Source: an uncultured Candidatus Saccharibacteria bacterium (GTDB lineage Bacteria > Patescibacteriota > Minisyncoccia > Phycocordibacterales > WO2-35-19). Taken from it: 64,000 nt of DNA. The stretch covers positions 5,737 to 69,736 of the forward strand of contig CAZJPJ010000002.1 in NCBI GenBank assembly GCA_964548205.1, given 5' to 3'. The translations under genes and the position numbers were made by a program. The notes beneath the pieces are model-generated. The model saw only the letters and a list, made by a program, of their open reading frames with translations, was not told the origin of the DNA and ran no database searches. Numbering within the stretch: the stretch's first letter is position 1; every line of letters begins with the position of its first letter. Shown piece by piece: positions 4,739 to 64,000 of the stretch.

Positions 4739-6129
4739 AAACCCGACAGATCGGAAACGAGATTATTTTTTACGGTGGAGTCGGTTCTACCACAGGTGCC
4801 AATTTTATGTTTACCAATGGCAAAGTAAAAGTTCTCATAGATTGTGGTCTGCGACAAGGTTCTAAAAAGGAAGAAGAAGAAAATTTTTTAGACTTTTCTT
4901 ATGATCCAAGCGAAGTAGATTTTCTGCTTATAACCCACGCCCATATGGATCATATTGGGAGGGTGCCAAAACTGATCAGAGATGGTTTTAGGGGCAAGAT
5001 CGTGTCTACTGCTGCAACCAAGCAACTGTCAGAACTTGCTCTGCAGGATGCTCTCAGGGTTATTTCTTCAAAATATCCAGATAGAGTGTTGTTTGAAAGT
5101 GAAGATGTAGAAGTCGCATTGCGTATATGGGAAACAAAAGAGTATCACGAAGTTTTTGAGTTGGGCGAGGGTTTAAAATGTGAGTTTTACAACTCGGGAC
5201 ATATTCTAGGTTCTTCTATTGTGGTTATAGAAGATAAGAGTGGGCGAGTAGCTTTTACTGGAGACTTGGGTAATTCGCCATCCCTTCTTTTACAAGACGT
5301 AGAATTGCCACAAAATATTGATTATTTGGTTATAGAGAGTGTGTATGGAGACAGGAATCATGATAATAAAGCAGAGAGACATGGGAAGATGCAAAATCTT
5401 ATAAGAGAGGGTATTAGGCGTGGCGGGGCTATTCTTATACCAGTCTTTTCTATCGAGAGGGCTCAAGTTCTCCTATATGAAATAAATAACATGATAGAAG
5501 ATGGAGAAATCGATCAGGTGCCGGTTTATCTTGATTCACCTCTCGGAGCTAAAGTGACAGAGGTTTATAGAAATTATAAAGAGCTATTCAATAAAAATAT
5601 TAAAGCCGAAATATCAGGTGGAGACGATATATTTGATTTTCCGAATTTTAAGATCATAGATAGTTTGCAAGACTCAAGTTTGATTCACAAAGAAAAAGGC
5701 CCCAAAATAATTTTAGCCGGATCTGGGATGTCAGAAGGTGGGAGAATGATAAGTCATGAGCAGTTTTATCTGGAAGATCCAAATTCGACACTCATCTTTG
5801 TCGGTTATCAAGCAGTAGCTACTCTGGGTAGAAGATTGGAGCAGGGAGAGAAACGTATCGAAATATATAACAAAAACAAGGAAGGGAAAAAAGAAAAGAA
5901 GATAATAAATGTCAGAGCCCATATTGAAAAAATAAATGGTTACTCCTCACATATGGACATGGATCACCTAACCGAGTTTGTCGACAATCTCAATGCACAA
6001 CACAAGCTTAGAAAAGTTTTTGTGTGTATGGGAGAACCAAAATCCTCGCTGCATTTGGTACAACGTCTGCGAGATTATGTCGGTGTCGAAGCTGTGTACC
6101 CTGAGATAAATAGGGAATACATTGTTTGA
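4735..6129 (+). CDS. MBL-fold metallo-hydrolase, beta-CASP RNA-processing family (RNase J/CPSF-like)
   Basis: Metallo-beta-lactamase motif ITHAHMDHIG, N-terminal GG.G...LIDCG pattern, and a C-terminal beta-CASP-like region. Overlaps the upstream ORF by 4 nt. Adjacent to rny. Confidence 0.7.
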   Translation: MKTRQIGNEIIFYGGVGSTTGANFMFTNGKVKVLIDCGLRQGSKKEEEENFLDFSYDPSEVDFLLITHAHMDHIGRVPKLIRDGFRGKIVSTAATKQLSELALQDALRVISSKYPDRVLFESEDVEVALRIWETKEYHEVFELGEGLKCEFYNSGHILGSSIVVIEDKSGRVAFTGDLGNSPSLLLQDVELPQNIDYLVIESVYGDRNHDNKAERHGKMQNLIREGIRRGGAILIPVFSIERAQVLLYEINNMIEDGEIDQVPVYLDSPLGAKVTEVYRNYKELFNKNIKAEISGGDDIFDFPNFKIIDSLQDSSLIHKEKGPKIILAGSGMSEGGRMISHEQFYLEDPNSTLIFVGYQAVATLGRRLEQGEKRIEIYNKNKEGKKEKKIINVRAHIEKINGYSSHMDMDHLTEFVDNLNAQHKLRKVFVCMGEPKSSLHLVQRLRDYVGVEAVYPEINREYIV

Positions 6130-8478: not shown

Positions 8479-9201
8479 ATGCGTCTGCATAGGTTTTATA
8501 TAAAAGAAGTATCGATCGATAGAAAACAAATCCAAATCTTGGGCTCTGACCTTTTGCATCAGTGGAGAAACGTTTTCCGATATAACACTGGGAGTAAGGT
8601 GGTTATTTTTTGCGGAGATGGTTTTGAATACGAATGTGTTATTTTGCAGCTAACAAATAGAGAAGCAGTACTCGAAGTGGTAGAGAAAAGAGAGGGAGAG
8701 AGGGGATTTCCGGGTCTAGTCCTCTATCAATCGCTAATAAAGAAGGGCAACATGGAGTGGGTGGTAGAAAAGGCTACAGAACTCGGAGTCGTTCAAATAG
8801 TACCTATCGTTTCAGAGCATAGCGAGAAAAAGGGCTTCAATATGGAGAGAGCCAAGAAGATAGCTATAGAGGCAAGTGAGCAGTGTGGTAGGGTGGATGT
8901 GCCAGAAATCAGTAGCATCATGGAGTTAGAAGAATGTATTAAGGAAGTTTCTGGAAAAGCTGTGGCTTTTGATAAATCCGGTGCCTCTTTTTCGGAGGCC
9001 CCACCCCCAAACCCCCTCCCCCAAGGGGAGGGGGCAGGGGGAGGGGTGAGTATCTTTATCGGACCGGAAGGAGGGTGGTCAGCGGGCGAGATTGAAAAGT
9101 TTAAAGAGGTTAATATCAAAATACTATCTCTGGGTAACCTGACCCTCAGAGCAGAAACTGCCGCTATTGTTGCTCTAACAATCTCAAGACTTCTTGGTTG
9201 A
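8479..9201 (+). CDS. rsmE: 16S rRNA (uracil1498-N3)-methyltransferase RsmE, carrying an in-frame GC-only low-complexity insert
   Basis: N-terminal MRLHRFYI... PUA-like region and the C-terminal SPOUT knot ([10 protein letters not shown]). The insert ...[17 protein letters not shown]... is encoded by a C/G-tract palindrome at 9001-9046. Confidence 0.8.
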
Positions 9202-58305: not shown

Positions 58306-58530
58306 CTTGTGTTTACATTGAGCTTGCCGAAGTGTTGCGGGCCGCTTCTAACGAGTCTCGCAAAATTTATTCCAAGATTGTTGCGGGGCCCAGACTCGCA
58401 CTAGGATCTTTTGGTTATGAGCCAAACGAATTACTTTACTCTACCCCGCAGATAATGATGTGAAAAATACTATCATATTTTTCATAGAATGCAAAATATC
58501 TAAAAGTGTGATAGATTTTCTATGCAAAAC

Positions 58531-58603
58531 GACGGAGTAGCTCAGTTGGTAGAGCACAGGACTCATAAGCCTGGGGTCGTGGGTTCAATCCCCACCTCCG
58601 TCA
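58531..58603 (+). tRNA. tRNA with CAT anticodon (Met elongator, or Ile2 if lysidinylated)
   Basis: Acceptor gacggag/ctccgtc, D arm gctc-agttggta-gagc, anticodon loop ctCATaa, T arm gtggg-ttcaatc-cccac, discriminator A. One A:G mismatch at 31:39. An extended -10 (TGaTAGATT) lies ~12 nt upstream. Confidence 0.75.
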
Positions 58604-58607
58604 CAAT

Positions 58608-58851: not shown

Positions 58852-59208
58852 CTACATACCCAGTGTGCTTATAGTGTCTACATAAGTACGCAAGAAGGCT
58901 GGTATGGCAAATACAAGGCCTATGACTGGCACCACGAATACTATTATAGTGATGATAGCTGTCCACTTTATATAATTGCGTATTTTTTCTACTGATATAT
59001 GTACTGCATCGATCTTGCGCTCGAGCTCATCGAGCCTTTTTTGGATATCTGGTTGCATGAGTACATAGTAGCATTTTGAGGTTGAGATATGTAGAAGGGG
59101 CGTGAATTCATGCTTGACCATATAGTAAAAAGCCTCTTTGAAATTGTGTAATTTCATGTATAATAACCTTCGTTCTTCCAGATTATTTTTAGATAGGAAG
59201 AAACGCAT
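58852..59208 (-). CDS. Hypothetical membrane-anchored protein
   Basis: 118-aa ORF with a C-terminal TM (WTAIITIIVFVVPVIGLVFAIPAFL). Confidence 0.4.
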   Translation of the reverse strand: MRFFLSKNNLEERRLLYMKLHNFKEAFYYMVKHEFTPLLHISTSKCYYVLMQPDIQKRLDELERKIDAVHISVEKIRNYIKWTAIITIIVFVVPVIGLVFAIPAFLRTYVDTISTLGM

Positions 59209-59229
59209 TTTTGAAAGATTTATAAAAAT

Positions 59230-59511
59230 GCGGGTGTAGCTCAGCTGGTTAGAGCGTCCGCCTGTAGATATGCAGCTTTTTGCCGAAAAGGCAAATTGAA
59301 ACTCTTTGGGATATCGGTGAAGGCTAAGTCTTATTTATATATATAGGATATGCGAACACCGAGGGAACTCGCCGATAAGGCGAGAGCGCCGTAGAGACTA
59401 GATACCAAAGCACCTAAAAGGAAACTCATGGTGAAGATATAGTCCACTCCGCTATGAAAATAGCGGGTAAGTGCACGCGGAAGGCCGTGGGTTCAAATCC
59501 CATCACTCGCG
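59230..59511 (+). tRNA. tRNA-Asp(GUC) gene interrupted by a group I intron in the anticodon loop (exon 1 59230-59265, exon 2 59474-59511)
   Basis: Exons join to gcgggtg-ta-gctc-agctggtta-gagc-g-tccgc-CTGTCAC-gcgga-aggcc-gtggg-ttcaaat-cccat-cactcgc-G. G10, G73 and the CUGUCAC loop are as in canonical tRNA-Asp. The 5' splice site follows U35 and pairs ctgt with the gcag guide (U:G). The intron ends in G. Confidence 0.8.
59266..59473 (+). ncRNA. Group I (self-splicing) intron, ~208 nt, Azoarcus/tRNA-intron type core
   Basis: The P7-P9 region cgccGTAGAGACTAGAtaccaaagCACCTAAaaGGaAACtCATGG closely matches the Azoarcus tRNA-Ile intron core (GUAGAGACUAGACGGCACCCACCUAAGGCAAACGCUAUGG). gggat...ctaagtc resembles its P3-P4 segment. 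No ORF inside. Confidence 0.75.
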
Positions 59512-59591
59512 CATCGATTTTTATACTGTGGTTAAGCCACAAAAACCACACACCCCTAAGGGATTAGAACTGTGGTAGTATTTTGGGTATG
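59497..59591 (+). repeat. Cassette-junction repeat family A, founder copy (tRNA-Asp 3' end plus downstream ~80 nt)
   Basis: aaatcccatcactcgcgcatcgatttttatactgtggttaagccacaaaaaccacacacccctaagggattagaactgtggtagtattttgggtATGg. Near-identical copies occur at 62471-62577 and 63646-63754. Confidence 0.8.
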
Positions 59592-60071
59592 GAAAATGAA
59601 ATTGAAAGAAAGTTCTATGTTAAAGAAATGCCTGATTTGTCTCTAACCAAGCCATTGCATTATGAAAGATTTTTCTTAGAAAGAAGTGAGGGAAGAGAGA
59701 TTAGGATTTCGAAAGTAGATAACAGGTATTGGTATGAAGTAAAGAATGAGTTATCCGAATTGGAAAGAACACGAGAAAAGAAAGAAATAACAAAAGAAGA
59801 GTTTGATAGCTTAAAACGGGGTTCCTCAGAAGTTATTATGAGGGAAAGATACGATCTTTCGTCTAATCCTAAAATTTCAATACAGATATATCACGGAAGA
59901 TTTGAAGGTCTAGTAAGAGCTGAGGTTGAGTTTGAAACAGAGGAAGAAGCTAAAAACTTCAAACCCTTGGAATGGATGGGAGAAGAAATGACGGGGTTGC
60001 CGATTGCTAGGGATAGTAAACTTATTGATCTATCGGATGCAGAATTTAAGACATATTTAAAATTGATTTAG
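59589..60071 (+). CDS. CYTH-domain protein (triphosphate tunnel metalloenzyme)
   Basis: N-terminal EIERKFYV (the ExExK motif of CYTH). Acidic residues recur in the alternating-strand pattern. ATG start preferred over the TTG at 59583. Confidence 0.6.
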   Translation: MENEIERKFYVKEMPDLSLTKPLHYERFFLERSEGREIRISKVDNRYWYEVKNELSELERTREKKEITKEEFDSLKRGSSEVIMRERYDLSSNPKISIQIYHGRFEGLVRAEVEFETEEEAKNFKPLEWMGEEMTGLPIARDSKLIDLSDAEFKTYLKLI

Positions 60072-60123
60072 TAAAATCAGTATTCATTTAATTGTTAGCG
60101 GGAGTTCCCAATTTACTACTGTT

Positions 60124-60309
60124 ATGATAAAAATAGAGGGGAAGGATCATATGAGCGAAGAAAATGACTTATACAGAGCTCTTGTTGATGCCCAGGCGAG
60201 AAGAGCCTCAATGGCAACAGAAAGCAGTCTCTGCCCCACGTGTGGGGCTACTATGATAAAAAGCGGTGGGCATTACCACTGCGAAACTCATGGCTCTCCA
60301 AAAAAATGA
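60124..60309 (+). CDS. Hypothetical small zinc-ribbon protein
   Basis: CPTCG...HYHCETHG four-ligand motif. 61 aa. Confidence 0.4.
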   Translation: MIKIEGKDHMSEENDLYRALVDAQARRASMATESSLCPTCGATMIKSGGHYHCETHGSPKK

Positions 60310-60349
60310 GGACTGATTAAAACAGCCAGACACTCAGAAAGGAGGTATT

Positions 60350-60399
60350 GTGTCTGGCTTTCGCTTTTATAAATATAGAGTGATAGTATTTCGGGTATG
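60350..60399 (+). repeat. Promoter/start-module repeat family B, copy 1
   Basis: gtgtctggctttcgcttttataaatatagagtgatagtatttcgggtATG. A 48/50 match occurs at 62107-62156. It carries the TGaTAGTAT extended -10 and a near-leaderless start context. It is preceded by the hairpin agccagacac...gtgtctggct. Confidence 0.7.
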
Positions 60400-60924
60400 A
60401 AAATCTACTTAATAAGACATGGTGAGACAACTGGTGATATAGAAGATAGATATGGTGGTAGTTATGACGACCATCTTACAGAGTTAGGAAGACAACAGAT
60501 TCAAGAAACAGCCGATAAAATTGTAGGAAAAGGGATAGAAATCATTTTTACCAGTACCCTTATAAGAGCAAAGGAATCTGGACAAATAATTTCTTCAAAG
60601 ATTGGTTGTGCGGTAGAAGAAAGAGAAGGTCTACAAGAAAGACACTATGGCATTCTAACTGGTCTTACAAAAGCTGAAGCCCTAGAAAAATACCCAGAAG
60701 TTGTGGAAGCGCATAAGGACTCAAAAAATACTGACCCAGAAGGGGAGAGTTATGAAGACTTTCAAAACAGAGTTCTGAATTCATTCAAAGAAATACAAAA
60801 AGAAAACTATAATACTGTTGCCATAGTCTCTCATGGTGGCCCAATTAAGCAAATCCTGGCTTACTTGAATATGGATATTCCTGAAAAACTGGGAGACGGA
60901 GAGATAATTGAGTTTGAACATTAG
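60397..60924 (+). CDS. Histidine phosphatase family protein (phosphoglycerate mutase-like)
   Basis: MKIYLIRHGET (RHG catalytic motif), ...VSHGGPI second His. Confidence 0.65.
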   Translation: MKIYLIRHGETTGDIEDRYGGSYDDHLTELGRQQIQETADKIVGKGIEIIFTSTLIRAKESGQIISSKIGCAVEEREGLQERHYGILTGLTKAEALEKYPEVVEAHKDSKNTDPEGESYEDFQNRVLNSFKEIQKENYNTVAIVSHGGPIKQILAYLNMDIPEKLGDGEIIEFEH

Positions 60925-60951
60925 TTCTAACGTCGTACACTACCCCGCGCA
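60923..60951 (+). repeat. Partial copy of junction repeat A (5' part only)
   Basis: agttctaacgtcgtacactaccccgcgca versus agttctaacatcgtacactagctcgcgca in the full copies. Confidence 0.6.
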
Positions 60952-61216
60952 AGACCAAAAATTGCTGGATTTTTTCCAGCAATTTTTGCGTCTATGCACG
61001 ATGTAGAAGCAAGCCAACTGCTTGGCTTGCGTTGGGATTTGAAAAGCGCAGCCATGTTTTTGTAGCAACAAAAACAGGCGAGCTAGGGTCATGAAAAATT
61101 TTCTGCAGAAAATTTATTCCTGACCAAATCCCATCACTCGCGCTAAGGGACTTTTTCTTAAAATATGTTGATAAATAAAGCCCGTTGGGTTCTAACGGGA
61201 GCTATTGTTTTTTTAT
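60952..61216. other. Highly structured noncoding region carrying an exact 19-nt copy of the tRNA-Asp 3' end (att-like) and ending in an intrinsic terminator
   Basis: Perfect hairpins at 60955-60989 (14-bp stem), 61009-61030 and 61056-61077. The self-complementary gaaaattttc occurs twice around tgcag. caaatcccatcactcgcgc at 61125-61143 equals the tRNA-Asp 3' end. Terminator cccgtt-gggttct-aacggg plus T7 lies at 61179-61216. Confidence 0.55.
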
Positions 61217-61304
61217 CATATCTATTATATAATTAGACCACTACTTAAACACGAGTAGTCGGTAACAACGAACATGTTCCCGCAATCCAAACAGAGGTGA
61301 AAAT

Positions 61305-61655
61305 ATGCCCGAGATTATTCTTTCTAGGCTGCAGTATGTGGCGGCGGGTATCGTCTTTCAGTCGTCGTTGTTTTCGTTTGACGATCTGGCTCATTTGAAT
61401 CATGTCGAGGTCAAGATTGCACCGACGACGGTTGGAAAGAGGGCCTTGATTGCTTATGTAAAGTTGTACTTCGATCGTTGGACATATGTTCAACACGGAC
61501 CCAGCGATCATCCTGCCCACAAAATGCCTGCAGAAGTCAGTGTTGTTTTCCTTCAGAACAGACAAAGGAAGCTGACGGGATACTACACTGTCGCCTTTTT
61601 CTACAACGGTGATCCTGGAGAACCGAAATTTCTCCATTCCATTGTTGGTTGGTAA
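61305..61655 (+). CDS. Hypothetical protein encoded in a GC-rich cassette
   Basis: Good Shine-Dalgarno (GAGGTG) 7 nt upstream of the ATG. The ORF region is much more GC-rich than the genome. A fully overlapping antisense ORF (61245-61658) exists, so the strand call is tentative. Confidence 0.4.
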   Translation: MPEIILSRLQYVAAGIVFQSSLFSFDDLAHLNHVEVKIAPTTVGKRALIAYVKLYFDRWTYVQHGPSDHPAHKMPAEVSVVFLQNRQRKLTGYYTVAFFYNGDPGEPKFLHSIVGW

Positions 61656-61817
61656 CAAACGCTCTGGAGAACAGCGTCCAACTTCAGCCTCGCGCTAACA
61701 CCGTGGGGCTTTCCATTTTTAATGCAAATGCAGTTCTAACATCATCCCTGCCCGCAATGCTTCGCATAGCGATGCAGGCGGGCACTAGGTGTTCCGAATT
61801 ATGCTAATATTTCACGC

Positions 61818-62096
61818 ATGATACGTTGGTTGGTTGATCGTAAATACTTTAGAAACGAAAATCATGCCATATGGTTTGCATGTTCGCTGGCCATAATATT
61901 TTTCGTGACACTCACGTATCTGAGGCCAAGCAAATTCATTTTTCTTTTGACACCGCTCGTTGTACATATACCCGCTCTCATAAACTCTTCTATCTCCGTT
62001 TACTTTGCTAAGGAGAGCGACTTGTATTCTAAAGACTGCATTTGGTTCAATGCTCTTTTGATAATTGTTTACCTAATATTATTTTCACTTTTTTAG
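61818..62096 (+). CDS. Hypothetical membrane protein (3 TM)
   Basis: 92-aa hydrophobic ORF. An upstream sequence (61721-61790) starts with cagttctaacatc, like the junction repeat, followed by nested GC hairpins. Confidence 0.4.
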   Translation: MIRWLVDRKYFRNENHAIWFACSLAIIFFVTLTYLRPSKFIFLLTPLVVHIPALINSSISVYFAKESDLYSKDCIWFNALLIIVYLILFSLF

Positions 62097-62106
62097 ACTC
62101 TATAGA

Positions 62107-62156
62107 GTGTCTGGCTTTCGCTTTTATAAAGATAGAGTGATAGTATTTTGGGTATG
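62107..62156 (+). repeat. Promoter/start-module repeat family B, copy 2
   Basis: gtgtctggctttcgcttttataaagatagagtgatagtattttgggtATG. Confidence 0.7.
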
Positions 62157-62480
62157 GAAAAAGTAAAAATTGTTGTGTTTGTTCCAGAAACTCATGCTGA
62201 TGCGGTTAGAAAAGCTGTTGGAGAAGCAGGTGCTGGAAAAATTGGAAACTATATCCATTGTAGCTTTTCAGTAAAGGGCAAAGGAAGATTCATTCCTCAA
62301 GATGGAGCTGACCCAACAATAGGGGAAATAGGTAGATACGAAGAGGTAGACGAAGAAAGAATCGAGTTTGTTTGTGACAAGGGTATGTTAGATCAAGTGA
62401 TTAAAGCTATGAAAGAAGTACACCCATATGAAGAGGTTGCATATGATGTTTACCCACTTTTAATAAAATCCCAGTTCTAA
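62154..62480 (+). CDS. Hypothetical small alpha/beta protein, tentatively PII/CutA-like fold
   Basis: KIVVFVPETHADAVRKAVGEAGAGKIGNY...HPYEEVAYDVYPL resembles GlnB-like superfamily members (HPYE motif as in CutA). The ATG start is used rather than the TTG at 62148. The stop codon lies inside the junction repeat. Confidence 0.4.
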   Translation: MEKVKIVVFVPETHADAVRKAVGEAGAGKIGNYIHCSFSVKGKGRFIPQDGADPTIGEIGRYEEVDEERIEFVCDKGMLDQVIKAMKEVHPYEEVAYDVYPLLIKSQF

Positions 62481-62577
62481 CATCGTACACTAGCTCGCGC
62501 ATCGGTTTTTCTATTGTGGTTAAGCCACAAAAACCACACACCCCTAAGGGATTTGAACTGTGGTATATTGGGATAGG
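62471..62577 (+). repeat. Cassette-junction repeat family A, copy 2
   Basis: ccagttctaacatcgtacactagctcgcgcatcggtttttctattgtggttaagccacaaaaaccacacacccctaagggatttgaactgtggtatattgggatagg. Confidence 0.8.
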
Positions 62578-62590
62578 AAAGAGGTGAATA

Positions 62591-63094
62591 TTGGAACGTG
62601 TAATAGAAATAGTTGGAAATATAGATGACCAAATGGCTGACATGTTTGAGGGAAAGATCCGAGAACTATCTGCTAAAGGAAATGATCCTATTTTGCTCGT
62701 GATTAGCTCACACGGTGGGTATGAAGCTCCCATGATAAGAATTATCGAGCAGATCAAAGCTTGCTCGGCCATTGTCAATGGGCGGGTTCGTGATTATGCA
62801 CATTCAGCAGGATTCGTTATTCTGCAATACTGCAAAGAGAGGAGAGCGCCTAGAGACAGCAGTCTGCTTCTTCATCTACCAAGATATGAAGCGGCAGATA
62901 TTACCAGAATGGTTGGCTTTCCAGCTGAGGAGGCCTGCGTAATCGAAGGTAATGAATTCTTCTATCGTTTTCTGGATTATCTAGGAGGAAGATCAAACCT
63001 TAACAGGTTTAAGCTTCGAGAGCTCGCAAGGGAAGATAGGGTGATTTTGGGGGCTGAAGCACTTGCCCTCGGTTTTCTTGACTGTTTGGAATAA
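62591..63094 (+). CDS. ClpP-family serine peptidase-like protein (phage prohead-protease type)
   Basis: ILLVISSHGGYEAPMIRII, nucleophile context YAHSAGFVIL, His in LLLHLP. TTG start with an AAGAGG Shine-Dalgarno. Confidence 0.5.
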   Translation: MERVIEIVGNIDDQMADMFEGKIRELSAKGNDPILLVISSHGGYEAPMIRIIEQIKACSAIVNGRVRDYAHSAGFVILQYCKERRAPRDSSLLLHLPRYEAADITRMVGFPAEEACVIEGNEFFYRFLDYLGGRSNLNRFKLRELAREDRVILGAEALALGFLDCLE

Positions 63095-63157: not shown

Positions 63158-63655
63158 ATGGAATCTCAGCCCAAACAATTTAACTATGAGAATAGTCTAA
63201 TAAGAGAAGTTTATGAATTATTAGGAGCCAGCACTCCGCTTGAGCTCCATGATAAATATGTCATAGAAGAACAGAAATTATTTAAGTCTCATGAATGGGA
63301 TTATGATAACCATGAGCAAATACAGAATAAGGTAAAAGATATTTTAGATAACGTAGATCCCACCACTCTTACTGAAGAGGAGCAAGAATGGAGACAGGAG
63401 ATACTGTGGTTCTGGTACCACCATGCTATTAGCTGTGCCATCTGGAAGAAAGATAGAGAAAAAGCTATTGAGTACTCAGAAAAAGCACTTTCTCTACAAG
63501 ATCGAGATCACCCTAATAAAATAACTAAGGTTCTTAGTTTGCTTGTCAACGACAAACTAGAAGAAGCAGAGGAATTTGTAAAAACTATTAATACCGATAA
63601 AGACACGGCCGAAGGGTTAATCGAGGATTATAAGAATGGAGGATTCCAGTTCTAA
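63158..63655 (+). CDS. Hypothetical protein
   Basis: 165-aa acidic ORF. Its last codons (…QF*) are provided by the junction repeat, as for the 62154 ORF. Confidence 0.4.
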   Translation: MESQPKQFNYENSLIREVYELLGASTPLELHDKYVIEEQKLFKSHEWDYDNHEQIQNKVKDILDNVDPTTLTEEEQEWRQEILWFWYHHAISCAIWKKDREKAIEYSEKALSLQDRDHPNKITKVLSLLVNDKLEEAEEFVKTINTDKDTAEGLIEDYKNGGFQF

Positions 63656-63754
63656 CATCGTACACTAGCTCGCGCATCGGTTTTTATATTGTGGTTAAGC
63701 CACAAAAACCACACACCCCTAAGGGATTTGAACTGTGGTAGTATTTTGGGTATG
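63646..63754 (+). repeat. Cassette-junction repeat family A, copy 3
   Basis: ccagttctaacatcgtacactagctcgcgcatcggtttttatattgtggttaagccacaaaaaccacacacccctaagggatttgaactgtggtagtattttgggtATG. Confidence 0.8.
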
Positions 63755-64000
63755 GAAATATTGGAATTATCTGAAATAGGTGAGAAGGTAATAAAAAACA
63801 AGACAAATATTTTAATTGGTTTAAGTATAAACAATAGCTATTTCAAAGATGGAAACCTGGAGAAAATAATCCAATGGTCAGCAGAAAATGCAAAAAGAAT
63901 ATTCATAATGATACCTGATAAACCTGCCATTTTTACCTTAATGAGCTTTGGTTATTCTGAAGATAAGGCTAAGGCAAAGGCTCGCCTCGAATCTAATAGA
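63752..64000 (+). CDS. Cyclodipeptide synthase (tRNA-dependent, CDPS)-like protein, N-terminal 83 aa (3' end outside the window)
   Basis: NILIGLSINNSYFKDGNLEKIIQWSAENAKRIFIMIPDKPAIFTLMSFGYSEDKAKAKAR parallels the CDPS N-terminal core (for example the B. subtilis YvmC-like [24 protein letters not shown]...LLAGHEAANLLEALG...KAERKVR), including the catalytic Ser context. Confidence 0.5.
   Translation, partial: MEILELSEIGEKVIKNKTNILIGLSINNSYFKDGNLEKIIQWSAENAKRIFIMIPDKPAIFTLMSFGYSEDKAKAKARLESNR

Follow-up and report, generated by a model that had tools for sequence, protein, structure and literature searches.

A conserved, structured module ending in a copy of the tRNA 3′ end lies behind tRNA genes in several Patescibacteria lineages and adjoins an array of small gene cassettes

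Results

A hairpin-rich spacer with a duplicated tRNA end

We analyzed a 64,000-nucleotide (nt) stretch of DNA, hereafter called the window, from an uncultured Candidatus Saccharibacteria bacterium (assembly GCA_964548205.1, contig CAZJPJ010000002.1, forward strand, positions 5,737 to 69,736). The subject of this study is a structured, non-coding module that lies downstream from the gene for tRNA-Asp(GTC) (59230-59511, + strand) and makes up part of a 380-nt spacer (60925-61304). The genes downstream from tRNA-Asp, as well as the stems, arms and junctions described below, are all on the + strand. An earlier note on this DNA had described the spacer as gene-free and dense in hairpins, and both descriptions are borne out. 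The phosphatase gene on the left ends with a stop codon at 60924 and the next open reading frame (ORF), coding for 116 amino acids (aa), starts at 61305; between them, the + strand contains no ORF and the - strand only chance ORFs of 42-50 aa. Folded as RNA, the 380 nt reach -128.1 kcal/mol, compared to -83.7 ± 5.1 kcal/mol in dinucleotide shuffles (z = -8.8; none of 100 shuffles is as good). The two perfect stems announced by the note, one of 14 base-pairs (bp; 60956-60969 with 60975-60988) and one of 9 bp (61009-61017 with 61022-61030), were both located, as were a third stem (61054-61063 with 61068-61076) and a fourth (61087-61103 with 61108-61125). A sequence that was said to occur twice, GAAAATTTTC, is not literally present; GAAAAATTTTC (61093) and GAAAATTT (61108) are instead the two arms of one hairpin.

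The 3′ part of the spacer carries an exact duplicate of the end of tRNA-Asp. This 19-mer, CAAATCCCATCACTCGCGC, occurs exactly twice in the 64 kilobases (kb), at 59494-59512, where it extends from C56 in the tRNA-Asp T-loop to one base past the discriminator, and at 61125-61143. No match was obtained in 100 shuffles, even with three mismatches allowed. The terminator claimed to follow the second copy is also found, as a GC-containing stem (61181-61199) that continues into a T-run (61181-61215 in all) and is flagged by a terminator scan; a small hairpin lies beyond it (61240-61259). The earlier note had named a 19-mer frequent throughout the genome and identical content in relatives as grounds against an integration event. 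In fact the 19-mer is not frequent, and related genomes differ in content.

Anatomy of the module

The hairpins and the second 19-mer belong to one unit, the module (60952-61144), which scores 155 bits with the covariance model R1 described below. In its general layout, the unit opens at the tRNA end with H1 (60956-60988 in the window), a 14-bp stem set between an A-tract and a T-tract, in the shape of a bidirectional terminator. H1 was not flagged by the terminator scan because its T-run lies inside the stem. In most copies, H1 is followed by an inverted complement of the acceptor 3′ strand and then by GAAG; the modules of the window and of its closest relative, L006, are devoid of the acceptor-complement segment. 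Next come H2 (61009-61030; loop CUGC, or CTGC as DNA) and a segment, CGUUGGGAUUUGAAA, that is complementary to the T-loop and T-stem and is termed antiT (TGGGATTTG at 61033-61041 in the window). A consensus scan found no promoter-like site between H1 and H2. Past antiT, the order is CGCAG, H3 (61049-61082), GnGAG, GGGGU, H4 (61087-61125; loop often with GACGA) and UGACC. The module ends with a direct copy of the last 17-20 nt of the tRNA, starting from T-loop position 56, after which stands the second terminator. This start within the T-loop is shared by all cognate units. In the window, the copy is the second 19-mer (61125-61143) and as such integral to the module; pairing of its first 9 nt with antiT closes a three-way junction around H3 and H4. 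Pairing of the direct copy with the inverted one implies that the 19-mer is built into the module.

Occurrence behind tRNA genes of other Patescibacteria

The same layout was found in L002, a Patescibacteria metagenome-assembled genome reached through the 246-aa protein encoded upstream. Here, directly behind an intron-less tRNA-Asp, are two hairpins, GGGATTTGAAA, a further hairpin, a long hairpin, TGACCAAA, a sequence resembling the tRNA end, and a terminator. A metagenome was then scanned with the pattern GGGATTTGAA-N(70-100)-TGACCAAAYNCNATC, yielding eight true loci that represent six distinct sequences (L006, L007, L010/L016, L011, L012/L014 and L013), plus three chance hits inside a coding region. 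In every true match the module begins right after tRNA-Asp. Model R1, built from a MAFFT alignment, recovers units outside the seed alignment, its E-values being rough. The module was found in nine other distinct Patescibacteria loci, where R1 gives 93-173 bits; the carriers identified by pattern scan and R1 are L002, L006, L007, L010/L016, L011, L012/L014 (two tandem units), L013 and L036/L037. Eight of the nine have it immediately 3′ of tRNA-Asp, the ninth (L036) being arranged like the window. The survey, consisting of one metagenome scan and one genome scan, is small and comprises 13 units. The window and L006 modules are 81% identical.

Several loci carry more than one unit. A second full unit is present in L012 and a partial one in L007 and in L010, while extra tandem fragments made of TGACC and the copy number three in L011 and two in L013. 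The three in L011, a locus on the reverse strand, read GTGACCAAATCCCA(TC) and lie 3′ of the module at about 600-710 in the orientation of the tRNA; they look like stacked remnants of repeated events. A Zambryskibacteria-like relative, L029, has no full module; at 9050-9130, a terminator is followed by a near-complement of the locus's own T-arm (AGACTTGAACC). The pairing of a terminator with an anti-T-arm segment, as in L029, may be the minimal conserved unit.

An Rfam scan of the 56-64 kb interval at E ≤ 1 returned the tRNAs and an intron only, with no match on either strand in 60900-61320. Scans of IMG/VR with the cassette repeat (see below) and with the module pattern gave zero matches, and blastn searches gave no match to phages and one irrelevant match to plasmids. 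A tRNA-like cloverleaf was rejected: the window, L006 and L012 units contain no 5′ acceptor strand, and the supposed 5′ strand of the T-stem is part of the conserved GnGAG/GGGGU junction and of the base of H4. Hammerhead, twister and retron elements were discarded as well, since core motifs, an Rfam hit and a nearby reverse transcriptase are all lacking. Nor are the hairpins dispersed repeats, as expected of REP/RAYT elements (repetitive extragenic palindromes and their associated transposases); an IS200-like/REP-associated tyrosine-transposase-like ORF with an HWHFI motif is found 5 kb from the module (7667-8341 of L007), in that locus only.

The fold is maintained by compensatory changes

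From an independent MAFFT alignment of nine units, RNAalifold derives 38 pairs, 28 of which show compensatory changes. When all 13 distinct units are considered, standard pairs occupy 93.9% of the cells (69.7% after shuffling), both sides change in 34 of the 38 pairs, and the covariation score is 0.68 (0.22 in shuffles); none of 500 shuffles reaches the observed values. When the 3′ partner is shifted by 1-3 columns, pairing falls to 30-45%. The 13-unit alignment was fitted to the model and leans towards structure, the MAFFT-based result serving as the independent check. In the window and in L006 all 38 pairs are Watson-Crick.

The module is not confined to tRNA-Asp. R1 also matches directly behind tRNA-Thr(GGT) in L016 (2029-2186, - strand) and tRNA-Thr(CGT) in L011 (229-386, - strand). 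In these units the H2, H3 and H4 motifs are unchanged, the direct copy reproduces the end of tRNA-Thr (20 nt in L016, 19 nt in L011) and the inverted segment is the complement of that end. Tailoring is also seen in L036/L037, where tRNA-Asp has an unusual T-loop, GUCAGCA, that both antiT (AUGGGUGCUGAC) and the copy (CACCCAUCAGCCGCGCA) match. The antiT/copy helix covaries in the Thr units and in L036.

We consider it firmly supported that the hairpins and the 19-mer (60952-61144) are one member of a conserved family of structured modules of approximately 190 nt, located behind tRNA genes in several Patescibacteria lineages. Equally firm is the conclusion that the 19-mer is part of the module rather than the scar of a local insertion.

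A three-gene cassette inserted at the tRNA end

Comparison with L006 defined the DNA that separates tRNA-Asp from the module in the window. By blastn, positions 664-1051 of L006 align with window 59128-59513 and positions 1045-1253 with window 60945-61146; the two blocks abut in L006. Since the L006 tRNA end thus adjoins the module, the window-specific insertion corresponds to 59514-60951, a conclusion firmly supported by these breakpoints and by alignment of the junctions. The insert, E1, is 1,438 nt long and contains three genes: gene 1 (59589-60071), encoding a 160-aa protein of unknown function; gene 2 (60151-60309), a Cys-rich protein of 52 aa; and gene 3 (60397-60924), a histidine phosphatase (Pfam His_Phos_1, E = 2.7e-43). 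It entered exactly at the tRNA end. The repeat around the actual 1.44-kb insert amounts to (C)CGCGCA, present at both edges, plus loose similarity; a conserved, element-borne arm accompanies it. The earlier note had read the two 19-mers as an attL/attR pair bounding an indel at 59512-61143. A site-specific insertion beside tRNA-Asp and an indel relative to a syntenic locus are indeed observed, but the 19-mers do not bound them, and the module is already present at the empty site of L006.

The arms of E1 recur further downstream. On the left, the P′ arm (59514-59588; repeat family D1) consists of TCGATTTTTATAC TGTGGTTAAGCCACA..CCCCTAAGGGATTAGAACTG, then TAGTATTTTGGGT, and ends at an ATG; it begins with TCGATTTTTATACTGTGGTTAAGCC, and a 39-mer of family D1 is exact in three copies. 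The tRNA end and the P′ arm together make an attL-like junction, A. On the right, the "alt" arm, AGTTCTAACGTCGTACACTACCCCGCGCA (60923-60951), overlaps the phosphatase stop codon and is found again at 62473 and 63648. Its union with H1 (60923-60975) is attR-like. At two further places, B (62468-62565) and C (63643-63740; 98% identical to B), alt is joined to P′ in an attP-like manner. Alignment thus reveals four junction types: the tRNA end joined to H1 (L006, the empty site), the tRNA end joined to P′ (A), alt joined to H1, and alt joined to P′ (B and C). From the sequences, these appear to be all the combinations expected from one site-specific crossover. The same arrangement exists in L036, which comes from another lineage, with 50% identity in the anchor protein: tRNA-Asp is followed by 3.5 kb of unrelated accessory genes, by GCAGTTCCAACGTCCGTGACCACGCCGCGCA, an arm homologous to the alt arm of the window and at the same position, and by the module.

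A cassette array on the far side of the module

The genes that follow the module form a second series. The motif AGTTCYAACRTC occurs four times in the window (60923, 61732, 62473 and 63648), compared to 0.07 expected, each time at or just past the end of a gene, and it overlaps or abuts the stop codon in three of the four cases. These sites delimit five groups, namely genes 1-3, gene 4, genes 5-6, genes 7-8, and gene 9 up to the window edge. All cassette genes have the same orientation, and AGTTCTAACRTC ends each small cassette 3′ of the module. That the region is a cassette array is firmly supported. The series starts at the end of the tRNA-end copy (61144), where CGCGC is joined to TAAGGGA. 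This could be a P′ arm with an internal deletion, a weak assignment supported by 7 nt only.

The first gene after the module, gene 4 (61305-61655), encodes the 116-aa protein, which has no family match. It is followed by a terminator-like hairpin, AGCCTCGCGCTAACACCGTGGGGCT (61686-61710), that contains CTCGCGCTAA, a 10-mer also present at the end of the module (61137-61146). Between genes 4 and 5 lies junction X (61732-61800), in which AGTTCTAACATC precedes a GC-rich hairpin (z = -3.3 when folded as DNA). A Logan unitig from the same organism, L001, corresponds to window 59536-61760 and stops at 61760 within junction X, at a point free of repeats in the window; a possible reason is strain variation at junction X in the source data set, SRR15237813. 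The remaining genes are gene 5 (61818-62096; 92 aa, hydrophobic and likely a membrane protein), gene 6 (62154-62480; 108 aa), gene 7 (62591-63094; ClpP-like), gene 8 (63158-63655; 165 aa) and gene 9 (63752-64000), which is cut by the window edge and encodes a tRNA-dependent cyclodipeptide synthase (Pfam CDPS, E = 2.4e-13; TIGR04539, 63 bits with a cut-off of 45). Such a synthase is not a usual cargo in Patescibacteria genomes, and searching for homologs with the truncated protein gave no matches. The cargo is otherwise ordinary accessory material, comprising a phosphatase, a ClpP-like protein and small proteins of unknown function, and PADLOC found no defense-system hits among the cassette proteins. 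For genes 3 and 8 and the 246-aa protein, the sole exact matches lie on short Logan unitigs of SRR15237813, which do not differ from the window and break off at the repeats.

The cassettes appear to carry their own expression signals. A promoter-like motif, TAGTATTTTGGGT-ATG (TAGTATTTYGGGT), is found at 59576, 60384, 62141 and 63739 and nowhere else in the 64 kb. In all four genes it runs straight into the ATG, resembling the extended -10 box of a leaderless gene. A 54-nt repeat, 94% identical between 60350-60403 (before gene 3) and 62107-62160 (before gene 6), consists of the 3′ half of a terminator hairpin and the promoter-like motif, indicating that regulatory modules have been copied between cassettes.

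tRNA-Asp, its intron and the surrounding genes

The tRNA-Asp gene, read from the sequence, is split in its anticodon loop by a 208-nt probable group I intron (59266-59473) into exon 1 (59230-59265) and exon 2 (59474-59511). For this reason ARAGORN does not call it. Exon 1 ends in U and the intron in G. Rfam family RF00028 (Intron_gpI) matches the intron with 47.8 bits (E = 5.7e-10), about 2 bits under the gathering score of 50. Anticodon-loop position, boundaries and family match are as in group I introns of bacterial tRNAs; the differences are the score, just under the Rfam cut-off, and the host, which is tRNA-Asp here. Once spliced, the product is a normal tRNA-Asp, with a G73 discriminator and no encoded CCA, 85-87% identical to the intron-less tRNA-Asp of L007, L010 and L011 and 77% identical to that of L036. 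The same intron is found in L006, the other relatives having none. As most module-bearing loci lack the intron, the two are unrelated.

A tRNA-Met pair followed by tRNA-Asp makes a conserved cluster (window 58380-58604; L002, L003, L007, L010, L029 and L036), downstream from ligA-gatC-gatA and a gene for a 220-260-aa protein of unknown function. On the other side of the module, tRNA-Thr is found in L007, L011 and L016, with prfB-ftsE(-ftsX) coming next in L007 and L016. Loci L036-L045 have an identical anchor protein and differ in the small genes that precede tRNA-Met (a PemK toxin, a helix-turn-helix protein, proteins of unknown function); the interval between anchor protein and tRNA-Met is a second variable spot in this population. 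The contig of P0020, the closest homolog of the 246-aa anchor, ends before the tRNAs. A 68-aa membrane protein encoded beside tRNA-Asp failed as a synteny anchor, having homologs in unrelated contexts.

Discussion

What could a structured module do behind a tRNA gene? Tentatively, and with a confidence that falls just short of even, we interpret it as a relic of integration, or a pseudo-attachment site, within a cassette hotspot linked to the tRNA. The locus would be a hotspot for site-specific recombination at the tRNA gene, and the module a fixed, non-coding relic or landing pad of an integration of the T-loop type, still retaining a pseudo-attB made of the tRNA-end copy and the terminator behind it. 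A recombinase encoded elsewhere would move the cassettes, crossing over in or beside CGCGCA at the tRNA end, and the second series would start right at the tRNA-end copy of the module (61144). We favor a role in recombination because the copy starts in the T-loop, as in known systems targeting tRNA and tmRNA genes; because the module stands behind a terminator and has no promoter-like site; because tandem fragments of the copy exist; because both arms are rewritten to match each tRNA; and because cassettes accumulate on both sides of the module.

A number of observations weigh against this interpretation. The module itself was never seen present in one genome and absent from another with clean breakpoints in any genome pair. 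Its identity between genera is 59-66%, and the divergence looks like vertical descent under structural constraint rather than recent mobility. In L006 and L013 the modules keep CAAAUCCC/GGGAUUUG despite a different T-arm in their own tRNA-Asp, implying that the copy is not always a displaced host end and that the internal helix is maintained in its own right. With 19 G-U pairs to 5 A-C mismatches (8 to 1 in the well-aligned units), pairing is biased in the way that an RNA would be, which places the folded sequence on the + strand. Only one genome is known to carry the cassette repeats A, B and C, and homologous recombination between such 100-nt repeats could mimic part of the pattern. Finally, no recombinase family is represented among the cassette proteins or beside any module, and neither motif expressions applied to the ORFs of the 64-kb window nor Pfam searches of a small subset of them detected an integrase or recombinase, IntI included; the single ORF matching a recombinase motif is a deaminase by Pfam.

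The excess of G-U pairs also belongs to the case for a structured non-coding RNA, the most serious alternative, though one that we consider rather unlikely. The module would be the 3′ trailer of the tRNA or of an upstream mRNA, made by read-through of H1 and ending at the second terminator; its fold would sequester a mimic of the tRNA 3′ half against an antisense segment, with a possible role as decoy or sponge, or in the processing or quality control of pre-tRNA, and the neighboring insertions would be a coincidental use of the tRNA as attachment site. Strong covariation in all helices fits an RNA well, as do the conserved loops (CUGC in H2, GACGA in H4) and junction motifs (GAAG, CGCAG, GnGAG and GGGGU), the invariable orientation of the module with the tRNA, the terminator that always follows, and a divergence that tracks that of the hosts. 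However, the module begins past a canonical A-tract/stem/T-tract terminator and offers no promoter-like site of its own, and no Rfam family matches it at E ≤ 1. An RNA role also leaves unexplained the tandem TGACC-plus-copy fragments of L011 and L013 and the rewriting of direct and inverted segments for tRNA-Thr and for the odd T-loop of L036, and the acceptor-complement segment is missing from two copies, those of the window and L006. The earlier note had suggested a recombination enhancer, a small RNA or a degenerate earlier junction for the hairpins. Either of the last two may hold; the structure has been kept through compensatory changes, however, and is thus not merely degenerate.

The model proposed initially, with 59512-61143 as a single island, the 19-mers as attL and attR and the hairpins as part of the island end, appears improbable. 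An exact 19-nt direct repeat that starts in the T-loop is what it would predict, and integration of a folded single strand might well leave a hairpin-bearing attachment region at the far end, beside the displaced tRNA tail. Its boundaries are already contradicted, though: the hairpins and the tRNA-end copy exist without intervening genes in L006 and seven other distinct loci, the L006 breakpoint falls at 60945-60951 and not at 61143, and the alt arm (60923-60951) recurs joined to P′ at B and C, hence is a cassette end. Still harder to sustain, in our estimate, is the notion that the tRNA-derived parts are decayed, functionless duplicates (pseudo-copies in inverted and direct orientation that flank a bidirectional terminator), whose likeness to the tRNA is kept by gene conversion, the hairpins being chance palindromes or terminators. 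The copies do lie near the parent gene, the acceptor sequences do track the local tRNA, and perfect Watson-Crick pairing of all 38 pairs in the window and L006 is as in young palindromes. Yet H2, H3 and H4 hold position and pairing across genera while their sequences change, the same internal motifs are found behind a different tRNA, and covariation (compensatory changes in 34 of the 38 pairs, equaled in none of 500 shuffles) disfavors decay.

Our preferred interpretation, a pseudo-attachment site or integration relic, has its closest parallels in tandem islands at tRNA and tmRNA genes. The ssrA islands of Dehalococcoides have a 20-bp repeat, are inserted in mid-T-loop, show a conserved non-tRNA motif just upstream of each repeat, and occur in tandem, with integrase-less units among them (PMC3146451). 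In Prochlorococcus, tycheposons are associated with partial tRNAs, and older elements are displaced inward as integrations succeed one another (bioRxiv 10.1101/2020.12.28.424599). Together with cis-mobilizable elements and cases of accretion, these systems share with the present locus a direct repeat of about 20 nt from the T-loop to the 3′ end of the RNA gene, an element-borne motif immediately preceding each repeat (TGACC or the alt arm in the present case), a tandem arrangement with newer elements beside the intact gene, and accessory cargo, some units being cargo-only without integrase. They differ in that the units described here measure 0.7-1.4 kb with one to three genes, or are a non-coding 190 nt; that no integrase is seen nearby; that the non-coding unit has a conserved, covarying multi-hairpin fold; and that an inverted complement of the tRNA end, present here, is not reported for them.

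The array also resembles integrons (attI, attC, IntI). Short cassettes with a common direction lie between imperfectly palindromic sites, the first motif of the site overlaps the stop codon, TTCTAAC agrees with the inverse core RYYYAAC at 6 of 7 positions, and insertion takes place at one fixed site; a strand-specific folded site would mimic a duplex target in both. In contrast with integrons, no intI was found in the window, the right-hand motif (ATTTGAA or ATTAGAA) is without the G of GTTRRRY (ATTTGAA matches 5 of 7 positions), B and C fold weakly (z of -1.5 to -1.6; X does better, with -3.3), the cassettes have their own promoter-like motif, and a tRNA gene end serves as primary site. In attachment regions of the CTX-phage type, two inverted copies of the target about 100 nt apart can anneal within one strand and imitate a double-stranded target. 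The module may be compared to such regions, with the differences that its target is the end of a tRNA gene, not dif, and that there are no phage genes. One may go further and suppose that the module and the shorter junctions, made up of an arm resembling the tRNA end, a hairpin and a T-arm complement, are folded single-strand recombination sites akin to integron attC sites or to the CTX-phage attachment hairpin, in which a stem imitates the duplex 3′ end of the tRNA gene, forming with that gene an integron-like cassette platform in Patescibacteria whose recombinase is encoded elsewhere. We rate this proposal as quite unlikely; if true, it would explain the strand-specific covariation and the absence of a promoter, as well as the rewriting of the arms for each target tRNA and the small size and shared orientation of the cassettes.

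Patescibacteria have tiny genomes, and their gain and loss of genes are poorly understood. The locus described here appears to be a tRNA-anchored hotspot where cassettes of one to three genes are added with base-pair precision, with no recombinase visible nearby. Its module is absent from RNA-family catalogues and is tailored to whichever tRNA precedes it. The module also shows why "partial tRNA" repeats beside tRNA-Asp or tRNA-Thr are not automatically island borders, and R1 can be used to look for further loci of this kind among thousands of metagenomic genomes. As a recombination site, the module would represent a new platform for cassette capture; as an RNA, it would define a new class of tRNA-linked structured RNAs.

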